NCBI GenBank assembly: GCA_963663165.1
Contig: OY760175.1
Span: 832,001-896,000, forward strand
Source of the DNA: an uncultured Desulfospira sp.
GTDB taxonomy: Bacteria > Desulfobacterota > Desulfobacteria > Desulfobacterales > Desulfobacteraceae
Reading direction: 5' to 3'
Length of the DNA stretch: 64,000 nt
Below, in pieces: positions 27,901 to 33,900 of this stretch. The position numbers are program-made. Each line of letters starts with the position of its first letter. Positions within the stretch are counted from its first letter, which is position 1.

Positions 27901-30900
27901 TCTTCCGGATAGCACACTCTCCTTTCAAACGCCTGGCTGTAACGGCAAAACAAATCCTTTAATCATAACCGGACCGGTCCCCGCCATTTTAACCCCGGAC
28001 CGGACCCAATTTTTTTTAAGTCAAGAACATTACCATTAAGGCCCATTTTCCGCAAGCCCAACAAGAGACAAGAAAATAGAAACAAGAGACAAGAAGATGG
28101 AAAGCCCGGCATTGTCCTGTCCCTACTTTCTTGTATCTTGTTTCCAGTTTCCAGTTTCTTGAAAGCATGCCGTTAAATGCTTGATATCCCCCCCGGTGGC
28201 TTCAAGCACAGGCTCTTTTTCCCGGCATATGGGCATCACATCCGGGCACCGGGTATGGAACCGGCACCCGGGCGGGGGATTTTCTACAGACGGGATTTCA
28301 CCTTTTAACACCATCCGTTTTCCGGTTTTTTCCGGGTCCGGTACGGGAACGGCTGACAACAGAGCCCTGGTATAAGGATGGGCCGGCCGGGTATAGATGG
28401 TGCCGGCATCGGCAATTTCAACCATCTTTCCAAGGTACATGACGGCAATCCGGTCTGAAATATGCCGGACCACAGACAGGTCATGGGAAATAAAGACATA
28501 GGTCAGGCCAAGGGTTTCCTGAAGGTTGAGCAGAAGATTTAAAATCTTGGACTGGACCGATACATCCAGGGCCGATACCGGCTCATCACAGACAATGATC
28601 TGAGGGGACATGCTGATGGCCCGGGCAATGCCGATGCGCTGGCGCTGCCCCCCTGAAAATTCATGGGGAAACCGGGAAAGGACATCAGCGGGCAGCCCGA
28701 CTTTTTCAAGAAGGCCTGAAACCTCATTTTCCAAATCCAGGTTGCCGGCCCCGTGAATCCTGTATTTTTCTTCTAAAATCTGCTGGATGGTCTGCCGGGG
28801 ATTCAGGGACTCAAAGGGGTCCTGGAAAATCATCTGAAGCTGCCTGGACAGTTTTTTCCTGTTTTTGGCATCCAGCTTTGAGACGGTGCCGCCGTTGACC
28901 CGGATCTGCCCGTCGGTTAACTCGTACAATCCCAGGATACACCGGCCCAAGGTGGTTTTTCCGCATCCGGATTCGCCCACAATCCCCAAGGTTTCCCCTT
29001 TTTCAACTGAAAAAGAAACCCCGCTGACCGCATGGACCCAGCCGGTCCGGCGCTGGAACACCCCCGAATATACCGGGAAATACTTTTTTAGATTTTCAAC
29101 TTCAAGAATGGGCATGTTCCGATCCTGTGGGATTTTAGCTGTTAGCTGTTAGCTGTTAGCCGTTAGCCGTTAGCCGTTAGCCGTTAGCCGTTAGCGAATG
29201 GTTGTAAGTCCTTATGGCTAAAGGCTAATGGCTGATAGCCAAAAGCTTCTTTTTAGCTGTTCCGGGGCTGTTATACCATCTTTTTTTTTGAAAATCGAGA
29301 AAAGCAATGCCAGCTTCCGTGATTAAACCGGAAGCTGGCATTGTAAAAAAATTGAATCTGAAAAAGTGGGGAATGGGTACGGGTTAGCTTTACGCCTGAA
29401 CCGCCACCAAGGCGACGCCCAGATTTTTTTCAAGGGCCTGGATTTTTTCAAGGGTTGCATTTTCCAGGGTGGTGGGCTTTGTATCGTGGCAGGAAAACGC
29501 CAGCATGGTAACCCCTAACTCTTTTTCCAGATCTTTGATCTGGGCCACATCCTGATCCTTTAAATTTGAAAGACTGCAAATCATGATATCCTCCTTGTTT
29601 TTAGCCATTAGCTATTAGCTTTTAGCCGTTAGCTTTTAGCTGTTGGCAGGCTGTATCAGCCTGGTATTTACATTTTGTTGTAAACTTATAGGTGTTTTTA
29701 TAAGAAACTGGAGACAAGAAACAAGAGACAAGAGGGCGAAGCACCTGCGGTGCCCAATTTATAGTCTACCGTTGCTGGTATCTTCAGTTTCATTATTCGT
29801 TGTGGGCTTGTGGCCCATGGCAGTTATAGCATATAATTTAAATAGAAAATCGGGATTGGACAAGAAGGGAATAGTCAGGGGTTAATGACGGGCAAAACCT
29901 GTCATTGTGATAAGGATTTTAAAAAGATGTTCAAGTTGGTGGCGTTGTGGGTTAAGCCCAGTTTTTTGCGTAAATTGCGCCGGTGAAAATTAACCGTGGT
30001 CAAGGAAAGGTTCAGCAGGTCTGCCATCTGCTTGGAGGATTTATCCTGTTTGATCAACGAGGCAATTTTGATTTCCTGGGGCGTAAGAATCGCTTCCACA
30101 TTGGAAACCCTTCGCAAAAATGGGGAGGCAATGTGATTGAGTTCCAATTCAATCAGTTCCAAAAGTTCCTTCTCAGGCCCTTTGGAAACGGCCTCTCTAA
30201 GCTGGTCAAGATAGGGCAGAACCGTAAATTTTATATTCTGAAAAAATGTGGTTTCCATTTGTTTGGCATCTTCATCCCGCTGCCGGAGGATGGCCCGCAG
30301 AGCCGCATTGGCCTCTTCCAAATGAATGGATTTTTGCTCAAGCTCCTGTTCCCTTTCCTTGAGCTGCTGCTCTGCAAGCTTTAAAGAAGTGATATTTTCA
30401 TGGCTGATCACCACCCGTAAGGGGTCGGAACCTGCAGCCCTGATGGCCCGCATATAAAACCAGCGTTTTTCCCCGGGCGAATGGCACGGATAATCCATAA
30501 CAAACTCGTCCACATCCCCGTTAATCACCCTCCGGATGCCTTTGGCCACGCTCCGGGCGGCCTGCCCTTCCCCGTCCCCTGCCATGTCACAGATATCAAG
30601 GTAATTGATATTCACCATATCCGGTCTGACCCCGATCTCATTTAACCGGGCAAATTCCTGCCATGCCCGGTTGGTTTCAATGATGATGCCGTTTTCATCA
30701 ATAATGGCAATGTGGGCGGACAGGGAATTTAAAATGGTTTCAGCGTAATTGATGGTCATGGCGCTCCGGGGGGTTGGCTTTTTTCCGGTATGGGCCTGCC
30801 ATGGGGATCTGTTTCGGGCTGCCCGAGTTTCTGATCAATATAGGCGGCGGCATTCCCGCCGAGATGTTCAAGCCTGTGGGCCGTGGCATGAACCTCATGT

Positions 30901-33900
30901 TCCGGTGTACCGATCTGTTTGAGATAGGTTTCCCACAGCCGGTGGGCCCGCAGCATTTTTTGGGCTTCATCCTTTCCTTTAGGGGTAAGGGCATAGCCTT
31001 GTTCCGTCAAGGTTAACTCCCCGTCCTGGATCATCTTTTTTAATACCCGGCCCATGTTTTTAACCGGCCCGGCATATTTTTGTATAAGGACCAAAGGGGC
31101 GGGCCCGTCATGTCGCAGCACCGTTGTCAGGATATCTTCAACCAATTGCTGTGGAATGAGGCTGCGCATCCGCATCCACCGCGATAACAGGCCGTACTTG
31201 GGGGCAACCACCAGCACCACCAGAAACTGAACCGTGCAAAACAGCATGATGGCCCCGCCCCCCGAAGAATCCAGCCAGACACAAAGGTAAAGGCCGCCGA
31301 TAACACTGGTGACACCGAACAGGGCCGACAGCCACATCATTTTGTCCAGACGGTCGCTTAAGAGATAAGCCGTTGCCGCCGGCGTAATTAAAAGCCCCAC
31401 CACAAGGATCACCCCCACCATGCTCACCGCAGAAACCACCACCAAAGAGACCAGGGTGGTCAAAAGATAATCCAAGGCCAGCACCGGCAGTCCGATGGAG
31501 GCCGCCATAACCGGGTCAAAGGTGGTCAGCTGAAAATGGCGGAAAAAAAGGACCAGCACCGTTAAAACGAAAGCGGCCACAAAGGCGCTGACCCAAAGGT
31601 CGGTATCGGCCACCCCTAAGATATCCCCCATGATAAAGTGCATCAGGTCAATGTGAATATAATGCCTGAAAATAGACACCGCCACCACGCCCAAGGCAAA
31701 AATCCCCGTGTACATAATGCCGATGGCGGCATCCTCCTTGACCCTGGAAATCCGGGAAACAAAGCTGATCAGTGCCACCGTAGTCACCGCAGCCATAAGA
31801 GAGCCTAACAGCATGCCCGGAGCATGGGCCTCCAGGCCGAAAAACAGCTTCATGATCAAATAGCCGCCGGCCACGCCGGCAATCATGGCATGGGACAGGG
31901 CATCCCCTAGAAAGGCCATGCGGCGAAGCACCACAAGACAGCCCACCACGCCGGCCACCACGGCTACAATACAGCCGCCGATCAGGGCCTTTTGAAAATA
32001 AGTTTGTGCCAGAGGGGCCAGAAGCCAGTCACCCATCAGCCATCTTCCTTTGTGGTTACCGCTTTAAAAACCTTTAACCGCCCTTCATAGACCTGGCTGA
32101 GCAGGTCTTCTTTGAGAACCAGACCCGGGGGGCCGTAGGCGTAAAGCCGCTGCTTGATCAACAGCAGTTTGTCAAAATATTCAGATGCCGTGGACAGGTC
32201 ATGGTGAACCACCACCAGGGTTTTGCCGGACTCTTTGGCCCGTTCCAGCACATCAAGAATGGCCCGTTCCGTTGCTGCGTCCACCCCGGCAAAGGGTTCG
32301 TCCAAAAGAAGGATATCGCTGCCCTGGGCCAGGGCCCTGGCCATAAACACCCGCTGCTGCTGCCCCCCGGAAAGCTCCCCGATCTGCCGGTCGGAAAACT
32401 CAGTCATCCGGACCATGTCCAGGGCCTCCATGGCCTTGTCCCAATCCTTTGGCTTAGGTGACGAATACCAGGGAATCTGCTGGTAACGACCCATTAAGGC
32501 CACTTCTTTGACCGTTATGGGAAAATCCCAGTCTACGGCCCCCCGCTGGGGCACATAGGCCACCTGGCCTTTGGCCTTTCGGGCAGGAACACCGTTGATG
32601 CGAACAGTTCCCAAATCCGGGGTAACAAACCCCAAGACAGCCTTGATAAAGGTTGATTTACCGGCCCCGTTGGGCCCGATAACCCCCACTAACTGATCGG
32701 TTTCAATGGCCACGGTAACATCGAGCAGGGCCGGCCTGGCATTGTAGCTGACGGTCAAATGTTCGACTTCAACGGCAAATTTGGGATGATCAGTCATGGC
32801 CGGACTCCTTTTCAGGGTCAAGGGTAAAGCCGACCGTTCCGGCCACCCGTTCCCCATGCCCGGCCCAGATGGTTTTATCAACCATGGATGCCCCGTTCAA
32901 GGTCAGCTTAACCCGGATGCCGTGAAACAGCGTACTTTCACTTACCGGGGGCCCGGCATTAATATAAACTTCGTTAAACCCGGGCAAAAGGGCTGGCAAG
33001 CGGCTGATCCGCAATTCCTGTCCCCGGGCCATATCCGGGGATGGCAAATCAATGTTTTTCCCGTTGAGCCTTATCACCAGATCTGATGTACTCTCATCCC
33101 CTGTGTCCAGGGCAAAGGGATCTTTCTGAGTAGAAAAGGTCGGGGTCAGGCTTAAAATAAAATCCGCCTGGACCACCGTTACGGCCTTTGCCCGGGCCGG
33201 TTCGCCGGGCAGCCGGGCGTCCCTGGCAGCGGTATAAAGCCATACGCTGCCAACCATGGCCACCCAGATCAGTATGCCAAGTAAAAATCTCACGGCTTTA
33301 TTTAAGCGCCCTCACAATTAAAAGGGTATTTTCCCGCATCATGCCGATATAGGTTTCCCCGGCCGAGCCTTTCGGCCCCATGGAGTCCGAGTAAAGCTCT
33401 CCGCCGATTTTTACACCGGTTTCCTGAGCAATTTCACGAATCTGCTTGGGGTTGATGGTGGTTTCAACAAATATGGCCGGGGCACCGGATTCTTTGATGG
33501 AGGCGACCACCTTCTGCCGCCGTTCCGGTGTCATGCCGGCCCCGACTTCAGCACCCGTAGACCATCCGACCGGGGCAATGGATAGAAAATCATTCTCTTC
33601 ATTAAAGTTGTATTCCCGGCAAAAATAATTGAAGGCATCATGGGTAGTGACCAGAATTCTTTGCCGGGAAGGGATAGTGCTGACCTGCTCTCTGATCCAG
33701 GCATCCAGAACCCGAAGCTGCTGTAAATACAATTTTCCCCGGGCCTGGTAGGCGTCCTTGTTTTCAGGATCAATCCCGGCCAGGGCCTTTATGATATTGT
33801 TCACATAAACCGCCGCATTCTGAGGGGAAAACCAGGCATGGGGATCCGGAAGGGTTTGTTTCCCTTCCTGGATCAACAACGGTTTGATTCCGTTGGTGGC

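Follow-up and report, generated by a model that had tools for sequence, protein, structure and literature searches.

In Chlamydia trachomatis, the ytgABCD operon encodes YtgC-YtgR (CT069/CTL0325), a permease whose C-terminal domain, YtgR, is reported to be cleaved off and to act as a metal-dependent repressor of the ytg promoter (PMC5599777; also covered in PMC7755916). According to the first of these papers, the full-length and cleaved forms are both detected, and permease-repressor fusions occur in 11 phyla. The functional YtgR is described as the C-terminal 139 aa, and its operator as palindromic and AT-rich (PMC6504234). As cited in these three papers, YtgC-YtgR was published in 2011-2012 (Akers 2011, Thompson 2012). 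The permease-repressor fusion is thus an already known design, and this literature supersedes the statement in the first-pass annotation of the present locus that there was no paper on such a fusion. A different principle, in which ABC importers are trans-inhibited by regulatory domains fused to them, is established for MetNI and ModBC, whose regulatory domain is placed at the C-terminus of the ATPase and not on the permease (PMC10710835). Here we describe a fusion of an ABC-3 permease to a DtxR-like tail from an uncultured Desulfospira sp.; all coordinates refer to the window, the whole stretch of 64,000 nucleotides that was analysed.

The fusion gene, its operon and its distribution

The fusion gene is the final core gene of an Mn/Fe/Zn-type ABC importer operon with the order binding protein, 167-aa protein, ATPase and permease (Table 1). 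As the first-pass annotation had stated, a single open reading frame carries both Pfam domains: an ABC-3 (TroC/ZnuB-like) permease domain at the N-terminus, with SloB/AztB-like matches in NCBIfam, and Fe_dep_repr_C (PF02742) in the tail (75.5 bits, E 3.4e-21, model positions 1-70 of 70, aa 351-418). The DtxR-like module is therefore not soluble, being in frame with a polytopic membrane protein. In the full-length AlphaFold model, the helix bundle extends to aa 277, the linker has a pLDDT of ~60-64 and aa 421-426 fall below 50. Across 61 fused homologues, P279 and G282 are invariant in the linker region, and Y281, L283, W287, R289, R291, P295, Q296 and Q297 are kept in at least 90%.

Table 1. 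Features of the fusion locus, with positions in the window.
Feature	Position	Strand	Basis or remark
PAS + LuxR-type HTH regulator	29902..30759	-	Pfam GerE 46.2 bits, weak PAS_4; translationally coupled to fusion gene
Fusion gene, permease + DtxR-like tail	30756..32036	-	426-aa ORF
Fusion aa 419-426 and stop, short Pro-rich end	30756..30782	-	TGA overlaps ATG of next gene (ATGA)
Fusion aa 352-418, metal-binding and dimerisation domain (Fe_dep_repr_C)	30783..30983	-	Pfam
Fusion aa 296-351, diverged winged helix	30984..31151	-	hhalign, AlphaFold, Foldseek
Fusion aa 281-295, short conserved juxtamembrane linker, YGLLSRWMRMRSLIP	31152..31196	-	
Fusion aa 1-280, ABC-3 permease domain	31197..32036	-	Pfam ABC-3 211.2 bits, aa 12-277
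ABC ATPase	32036..32881	-	Pfam ABC_tran 102 bits; likely start near 32800
Conserved 167-aa protein, unknown family	32790..33293	-	N-terminal hydrophobic helix + beta-rich domain
Periplasmic metal-binding protein, ZnuA/TroA family, cluster A-I	33298..34356	-	Pfam ZnuA 268.7 bits
Intergenic control region, common to the operon and a divergent FAD oxidoreductase gene	34231..34476		

The Pfam and NCBIfam matches of the neighbouring genes agree with the earlier assignment of a metal importer operon with a ZnuA-family binding protein and an ABC ATPase. The binding protein probably starts at the ATG at 34230, which has AAGGAG in front; its NCBIfam matches are AztC/MntC-like, below the cut-offs, and its nearest solved structures are YfeA, MntC, MntA, SitA, TroA and PsaA. 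The ATPase frame of 281 aa (~254 aa from the likely start) consists in Pfam of an ABC_tran core with no extra domain. In NCBIfam it comes closest to an MntA-type model (223.9 bits, below the cut-off). At its end, the TGA stop codon and the ATG of the fusion gene overlap in the sequence TGATG. The 167-aa protein matched nothing in Pfam or NCBIfam, and its Atlas matches were clusters with no name, apart from a weak resemblance in fold to MmpS (TM 0.50). Among the best 80 of 327 related loci, this protein lies between the binding protein and the ATPase in 75, and the gene order of the operon is kept in 73. The PAS + LuxR-type regulator adjoins the fusion gene in just one of the 80, L001; it is lineage-specific and lies outside the conserved system. 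The operon has a single ABC-3 gene and no second, unfused permease, the other strong ABC-3 match of the genome being 2.9 Mb away. The transporter, presumed to be a homodimer, would therefore carry two tails.

The fusion had been considered rare, on the basis of three genomes. Relatives of the fusion gene are encoded in 327 stretches of species-representative genomes, and in a sample of 201 genomes of the order Desulfobacterales, 11 have the fusion; it is common in sulfate-reducing bacteria. That a permease gene and a separate mntR gene were joined by an assembly error, frameshift or read-through is so improbable that we rejected it: 78 of the best 80 of the 327 related loci, from many independent assemblies, have the tail in an uninterrupted frame, as do ~70 protein clusters, and the linker is kept at the protein level. 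An internal start codon, found at aa 288 in 23 of 72 genes and at aa 290 in 27 of 72, is unconserved, which argues against two joined genes; nor is internal translation conserved as another route to a free repressor domain.

Fold, metal sites and conservation of the tail

The first-pass annotation had described the tail as lacking the DNA-binding winged helix. At the level of fold this does not hold, as aa ~296-351 were assigned by hhalign, AlphaFold and Foldseek to a winged helix homologous to the N-terminal domain of DtxR. A tail profile built from the 61 fused homologues aligned with free DtxR regulators from the first helix of the regulators onward (hhalign probability 99.5%, E 9.7e-23). 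The AlphaFold model of the tail (pLDDT 89.4) has the order helix1-helix2-helix3-wing-helix4-6. Its winged helix comprises helix 1 with E300-D301, helix 2, the recognition helix (aa 328-337) and a two-strand wing; in tail numbering these elements are H16-29, H35-42, H48-57, E61-64 and E67-70, in blocks of pLDDT 91-98. The top Foldseek matches were two-domain IdeR (TM 0.73/0.72, rmsd 2.3, 131 columns) and DR2539 (TM 0.75/0.79), with the winged-helix and dimer domains aligned over 126-131 columns, and DNA-bound entries were among the top matches.

What stands of the earlier description is the absence of the Pfam/NCBIfam sequence signature. At E<=10 the winged helix of the tail had no match to PF01325 or to the other wHTH families of Pfam, PF01325 matched none of 23 diverse fused representatives at E<=1e-4, and the NCBIfam MntR and DtxR models match the tail only from model positions ~45-52 onward, as previously noted. 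Alignments of the tail to the PDB sequences of IdeR, DtxR, SloR and MntR begin at chain positions 36-39, which we take to lie within the helix-turn-helix. Collectively, the profile alignment and the structural model indicate a complete two-domain DtxR/MntR-like module, ~139 aa long, in the tail.

The His/Glu pattern that had been assigned by eye is invariant or nearly so across the 61 fused homologues. H365, R366, E369, H383, E390 and H391 are invariant and H387 is kept in at least 90%; E300 is invariant, and D301 is invariant or kept in at least 90%. D301, H365, E369, H383, H387, E390 and H391 are presumably the ligand-equivalent positions in DtxR/MntR numbering, the Asp on tail helix 1 taking what we assume to be the position of the DtxR/MntR helix-1 ligand.

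The ratio of winged-helix to dimer-domain identity is 0.71 in fused tails and 0.74 in canonical regulators, suggesting that the winged helix is under a comparable constraint in both. Within the tail, conservation is lowest in the recognition helix: its pairwise identity is 0.34, whereas the winged helix as a whole reaches 0.47 and the dimer domain 0.66. Canonical regulators show the opposite, their recognition helix being better conserved than any other part (0.52 compared to 0.39). The recognition helix region of fused tails is strongly basic (K+R 3.2 compared to D+E 0.9 per 12 residues).

Proposed repression of the operon or feedback on the transporter

At about even confidence, we favour the reading that the tail works as a metal-dependent autorepressor of the YtgR type, whether set free or still tethered. 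Imported metal building up in the cytoplasm would fill the His/Glu sites of the tail, including the ligand position on helix 1 of the winged helix. The metal-filled module would dimerise into the active form, which would repress its own operon and possibly other genes, either after proteolytic release, as shown for Chlamydia YtgR, or while tethered. For the fusion, the data show anatomy, fold, conserved ligand positions, operon and distribution, whereas we infer DNA binding, target promoter, cleavage and metal by analogy. Autoregulation is the more parsimonious reading because the complete two-domain module matches the proven YtgR in size and position. The complete repressor fold, the conserved ligand positions, the basic recognition helix and a winged-helix constraint like that of canonical regulators are consistent with it, as is the reported cleavage and metal-dependent repression of YtgR (PMC5599777, PMC6504234, PMC7755916).

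The genes around the fusion also bear on autorepression. No other DtxR-like gene lies near the fusion in any of the best 80 of the 327 related loci (flanks of up to 5 kb on each side, as far as the contig reached), which leaves the tail as the sole local candidate for a regulator. Elsewhere in the genome there are free-standing DtxR-family genes, as had been reported; three were found (128, 129 and 157 aa), all matching PF01325 (E 1.3e-10 to 1.6e-18). These canonical DtxR/MntR-type regulators are possible controllers of the operon and count against an autorepressor, as do the missing PF01325 match in the tail and in all 23 fused representatives and the low conservation of the recognition helix.

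The promoters point the same way. Candidate operator sites in the control region are a conserved block at ~34352-34411, in which TTTGAC is repeated directly (34381-34386 and 34362-34367), and a 21-bp palindrome at 34272-34292; a promoter-like site lies at 34366-34339. The closest relative, L001, keeps the block but not the palindrome, though the recognition helices are identical. Upstream of 72 operons, no common dyad stood out (the best in 3 loci, with shuffles reaching 2-3) and no common k-mer (the best 8-mer in 48 loci, with shuffles up to 43), and lineage-level footprinting of the promoters gave no clear operator. A variable recognition helix and 72 promoters with no common operator lend indirect support to the protein-level feedback proposed in the first-pass annotation, in which the tethered module would be a cytoplasmic metal sensor built into the importer and would itself slow uptake; we regard this reading as possible but on the unlikely side. 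On binding metal, helix 1 (E300-D301) would be drawn to the metal site and the two tails of the permease homodimer would dimerise; through the short, rigid linker the signal would reach either the last membrane helix or the ATPase, and the winged helix would be part of an allosteric switch, not a sequence-specific DNA reader. The strong conservation of the short linker (W287, R289, R291, P295, Q296 and Q297, with E300 invariant), the single ABC-3 gene with hence two tails per transporter, and the loss of the winged-helix signature in all 23 fused representatives are consistent with such feedback, and its principle is known from MetNI and ModBC. The regulatory domain of those importers is on the ATPase (PMC10710835), which speaks against such feedback. 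So do the complete repressor fold with its basic recognition helix, the absence of an adjacent canonical regulator from the best 80 of the 327 related loci, and YtgC-YtgR, which binds DNA and represses and is the sole experimentally studied fusion in the literature as available.

Further relatives of the tail are single-pass, membrane-anchored DtxR-like proteins with two FeoA domains, encoded in split-feoB operons and having no permease domain; a literature search found no description of them. They retain the last membrane helix and the junction motif common to the fusion linker, and they resemble the fused tails in their diverged winged helix and in the conservation of ligand positions. The anchored proteins occupy the place of FeoA, with the FeoB GTPase gene downstream in 41 of 52. 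The sequence upstream sufficed for 37, and in 24 of these a canonical, PF01325-bearing DtxR gene stands in front, so that in those operons a separate gene already fills the repressor role. In an unrooted tree with a small sample of canonical regulators, all 18 of these separate from every tethered form (support 100/98), and the anchored proteins nest among the fused forms (99/92). The tree and the canonical DtxR genes beside the anchored relatives argue for direct feedback. The Feo argument is, however, an analogy from relatives and does not concern the Desulfospira operon itself, and the rooting and sampling of the tree weaken it.

These relatives suggest a broader, rather doubtful proposal: that tethered DtxR-like modules, permease-fused and anchored alike, form a widespread clade of transporter-attached metal sensors that are not primarily transcription factors. 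If true, a repressor fold would have been reused as an allosteric switch that shuts an NTPase-driven importer (ABC or Feo) at metal repletion, and the repressor activity in Chlamydia would be just one function of the clade, whether retained or secondary. It is improbable that both functions are combined, with the attached tail throttling the transporter and the released or tethered tail also repressing transcription. This would accommodate the evidence for either reading and the full-length and cleaved forms detected together in Chlamydia (PMC5599777), but it is the least parsimonious reading and no result requires both functions.

Comparison with known systems

The likeness to the C2 domain of E. 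coli MetNI and to M. acetivorans ModBC, as described in PMC10710835, is in the proposed logic alone, whereby substrate that has been imported binds to a fused cytoplasmic domain, which then prevents further import. Unlike in MetNI and ModBC, the sensor is on the permease and has another fold, and the ATPase has no extra domain. With the anchored proteins of split-feoB operons the fused tail shares the side of the tree, the junction motif, the winged helix and the ligand positions; the anchored proteins differ in having no permease domain, two FeoA domains, FeoB neighbours and often an adjoining canonical DtxR gene.

Compared to two-domain regulators, the tail resembles IdeR (2isy) and Deinococcus DR2539 (8pvt/8pw0) in fold over both domains (TM 0.72-0.79), and these and B. 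subtilis MntR in the conserved His/Glu ligand positions. Unlike two-domain DtxR/MntR regulators, it is covalently tethered to the membrane, is unmatched by PF01325 and has a recognition helix that is poorly conserved in the family.

YtgC-YtgR differs from the Desulfospira system in several respects. Chlamydia has two permeases, YtgC and YtgD, where the Desulfospira operon has one permease gene, presumably giving a homodimer with two tails; the Desulfospira operon has the extra conserved 167-aa protein, and its recognition helix is diverged, variable and not recognised by Pfam. In common with YtgC-YtgR as described in the literature, the Desulfospira protein joins an ABC-3-type permease to a C-terminal DtxR-like module, with the last ~139 aa as the functional module and no third domain. 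In both, the gene lies within a metal ABC importer operon and the metal-ligand positions are conserved.

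The fusion gene, its operon and its distribution

The open reading frame call, Pfam and NCBIfam confirmed the gene, the domain matches and the importer operon described in the first-pass annotation. In Pfam, residues 12-277 of the fusion protein matched ABC-3 (211.2 bits), and residues 351-418 matched all 70 model positions of Fe_dep_repr_C (PF02742, the metal-binding/dimerisation domain of DtxR; 75.5 bits, E 3.4e-21). NCBIfam models for MntR and DtxR aligned to the C-terminal DtxR-like module, the tail, only from model position ~45-52. The stop of the ATPase gene overlaps the start of the fusion gene (TGATG). 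The solved structures nearest to the binding protein were YfeA, MntC, MntA, SitA, TroA and PsaA, and every match to the Mn- and Zn-type NCBIfam models was below cut-off. On sequence, the imported metal can be called Mn/Fe/Zn-type and nothing narrower. The 167-aa protein has a single N-terminal hydrophobic helix, and in 75 of 80 related operons its gene separates those of the binding protein and the ATPase; its Atlas matches were unnamed clusters only (Planctomycetota, Verrucomicrobiota), with a weak MmpS-like fold lead (TM 0.50). An ATGA overlap couples translation of a PAS + LuxR-type regulator gene to the end of the fusion gene. The regulator gene was rejected as a component of the system, being present in only one of the 80 related loci, that of the closest relative (L001), and its restriction to the window and L001 marks it as a recent addition to the operon.

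Coordinates of the fusion operon, promoter features and related loci (window positions unless a contig or locus is named)
Feature	Coordinates	Strand	Remark
PAS + LuxR-type HTH regulator gene	29902-30759	minus	coupled to fusion-gene end
Fusion ORF	30756-32036	minus	426 aa
ABC ATPase	32036-32881	minus	upstream of fusion
167-aa protein without family	32790-33293	minus	upstream of fusion
ZnuA-family binding protein	33298-34356	minus	upstream of fusion; likely start 34230
21-bp palindrome	34272-34292		window promoter
Conserved intergenic block	about 34352-34411		
FAD-oxidoreductase gene	34477-35724	plus	divergent
Unfused ABC-3 permease	C1:3727654-3728430	plus	297-aa open frame, outside window
Fusion match in L047	L047:5001-5960		stops at residue 320
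Anchored-protein operon	L098:2483-6469		metagenome locus
Anchored-protein operon	L106:4302-8259		metagenome locus
Anchored-protein operon	L127:4306-8213		metagenome locus

When the tail was the query, a word-indexed protein search gave about 70 clusters of fused proteins, which fall into size classes of ~420 aa and ~505 aa. With one genome searched per species, relatives were encoded by 327 stretches. Related loci come from many Desulfobacterota lineages, SAR324 and Planctomycetaceae. The DtxR-like tail was present in 78 of the best 80 of these 327 loci, and the gene order binding protein, 167-aa protein, ATPase and fusion was kept in 73 of the 80. The tail was missing from L012, which ends at a contig edge, and from L047, whose contig continues beyond the match and where the copy could be truncated or frameshifted. 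Among 201 sampled genomes of the order, 11, including the one under study, encoded the tail (E<=1e-20; open frames of 434-547 aa). The permease-DtxR fusion is therefore common in Desulfobacterota, not rare as first thought, and one protein cluster already carries a JGI label as a permease/Mn-dependent DtxR fusion. The genome under study also encodes a second, unfused ABC-3 permease. One protein, P0151 (869 aa), is a triple fusion of a ZnuA-type binding protein, an ABC-3 permease and a winged helix with Fe_dep_repr_C and FeoA; its winged helix gave a weak HTH_IclR match.

A winged helix in the tail

The tail had been described as lacking the DNA-binding half of DtxR-family repressors. Several independent lines of evidence identify residues ~296-351 of the fusion as a winged helix, of which only the sequence signature is missing. 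PDB alignments of the last 146 residues to IdeR, DtxR, SloR and MntR start at chain positions 36-39, which we take to lie inside the helix-turn-helix. A profile of 61 fused homologues aligned with that of free-standing DtxR regulators (99.5% probability, E 9.7e-23) across the regulators' first helix, helix-turn-helix and dimerisation domain, and in the ~505-aa forms the alignment extends into a third, SH3-like domain. The AlphaFold2 model of the tail (mean pLDDT 89.4) has the order helix 1, helix 2, helix 3, two-strand wing and three more helices. Its best Foldseek matches in the PDB, which include DNA-bound entries, were two-domain IdeR (TM 0.73/0.72, rmsd 2.3 Å, 131 columns) and Deinococcus DR2539 (TM 0.75/0.79). 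In the full-length model the tail fold was unchanged and the linker was lower, with a pLDDT of about 60-64.

Neither PF01325, the DtxR N-terminal DNA-binding domain, nor any other winged-helix Pfam family matched the tail at E<=10. PF01325 and many winged-helix families do match each of the three DtxR-type paralogues, of 128, 129 and 157 aa, that the genome encodes as free-standing proteins. To Pfam, which does not recognise the diverged winged helix, the tails of fused proteins look 'sensor-only' although they hold the full repressor fold; this annotation trap is corrected here. Residues D301, H365, E369, H383, H387, E390 and H391 align with the DtxR/MntR ligand positions, in the numbering that we assume for those proteins, and each is invariant or at least 90% conserved in 61 homologues; E300 is invariant. 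The genome's three free-standing two-domain DtxR/MntR-type regulators lie outside the window (loci L082, L083 and L084).

Membrane-anchored relatives in split-feoB operons

Outside the permeases, the tail's nearest relatives form nine clusters of 331-363 aa and are not soluble. They start with one hydrophobic helix, which aligns to the permease's final membrane helix, and continue with the same junction motif, a diverged winged helix, Fe_dep_repr_C and two FeoA domains. Among 58 metagenomic loci surveyed (L097-L154), 52 held the full anchored gene, and in 41 of these a separate FeoB GTPase-domain gene, and after it the FeoB membrane part, lies just downstream. A canonical DtxR gene precedes the anchored gene in 24 of the 37 loci having at least 750 nt upstream, and its PF01325 domain was confirmed by Pfam in four of six loci scanned. 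The conserved operon order is canonical DtxR (PF01325, PF02742 and FeoA), anchored DtxR-like protein with two FeoA domains, FeoB GTPase and FeoB membrane part. A literature search found no published description of such an anchored DtxR-like/split-feoB operon. Anchored forms were also sought in the phylum, where only fused forms and ordinary soluble regulators were found; 308-aa matches (L085) were rejected as anchored forms, being canonical soluble DtxR + FeoA proteins.

A maximum-likelihood tree of 63 modules, unrooted and with a small canonical sample and several long-branch rows, split 18 canonical regulators from all tethered forms (100/98) and placed the anchored proteins as a clade (99/92) nested among the fused forms. 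Beside the anchored sensors, a separate gene often already supplies the standard repressor. This suggests, by analogy with the anchored relatives rather than from the operon studied here, that a tethered module can have another job at the transporter.

Possible repression or direct transport control, and the YtgC-YtgR precedent

We give about an even chance that the tail is a metal-dependent repressor of the YtgR type, which would act either released or tethered. This reading is suggested by its complete fold, which agrees in size and position with the Chlamydia domain proven to repress, by the retained ligand position in helix 1, by the basic recognition-helix region (K+R 3.2 versus D+E 0.9 per 12 residues) and by the conservation of the winged helix relative to the dimer domain. 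That ratio was 0.71 in fused tails, 0.74 in canonical regulators and 0.69 in anchored relatives, for the 39 of 61 fused, 7 of 9 canonical and 9 anchored sequences that remained after regex-based domain cutting dropped 22 fused and 2 canonical ones. Because this domain-level ratio is the same as in canonical regulators, relaxed selection on the winged helix was rejected. A second DtxR-like gene was absent from all 80 related loci, which was also counted in favour of a repressor.

Direct protein-level control of the transporter by the tail, predicted in the first-pass annotation as feedback on import, is a less likely alternative. Several observations count against a repressor or for such control. 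PF01325 was absent from all 23 diverse fused representatives at E<=1e-4, and the 15-residue linker is strongly conserved among fused homologues. Within the tail, conservation is lowest in the recognition helix (0.34), the opposite of canonical regulators, which conserve this helix better than the rest of their winged helix (0.52). An inverted-repeat search found a 21-bp palindrome in the window promoter, which is not conserved in L001 although the recognition helices are identical. Across 72 operon promoters, exact dyads of 5- or 6-mers separated by gaps of 0-14 did not outperform shuffles, and 8-mers with one mismatch allowed gave only A/T-rich words, none common beyond chance. Nine aligned Desulfofustis-like promoters had conserved cores and no clear dyad. 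That the tail both represses transcription and controls the transporter directly appears improbable. When tail and ATPase were modelled as a complex, ipSAE was 0.00 in both of two runs without controls, which counts neither for nor against binding.

An upstream search for riboswitches or other RNA elements gave nothing relevant, its two matches lying elsewhere in the region and far below gathering scores. Internal translation as a route to a soluble tail was rejected, as start-capable codons occur at residue 288 in only 23 of 72 genes and at residue 290 in only 27 of 72. An intergenic block with two TTTGAC direct repeats, 19 nt apart, is near-identical in the window and L001, where its flanks have diverged, and is shared with the divergent FAD-oxidoreductase gene.

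The fusion had been thought unpublished, a claim that falls because the Chlamydia YtgC-YtgR literature describes this architecture (PMC5599777 and PMC6504234). In the review PMC5599777, YtgR is a cleavage product that exerts metal-dependent repression on the ytg promoter, and orthologous permease-repressor fusions are reported from 11 bacterial phyla. Functional YtgR comprises the C-terminal 139 residues, with an AT-rich palindrome as its operator (PMC6504234; see also PMC7755916). Compared through these published descriptions, the window fusion is a member of the known YtgC-YtgR kind. The hypervariable recognition helix, the lack of a common operator, the conserved junction and the anchored relatives beside canonical DtxR make the mechanism worth an experiment, and raise the question of whether YtgR-type release is general or many tethered modules regulate transport directly. 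For this, a free-living, non-pathogenic sulfate reducer with a homodimeric permease would be a simpler test system than Chlamydia.
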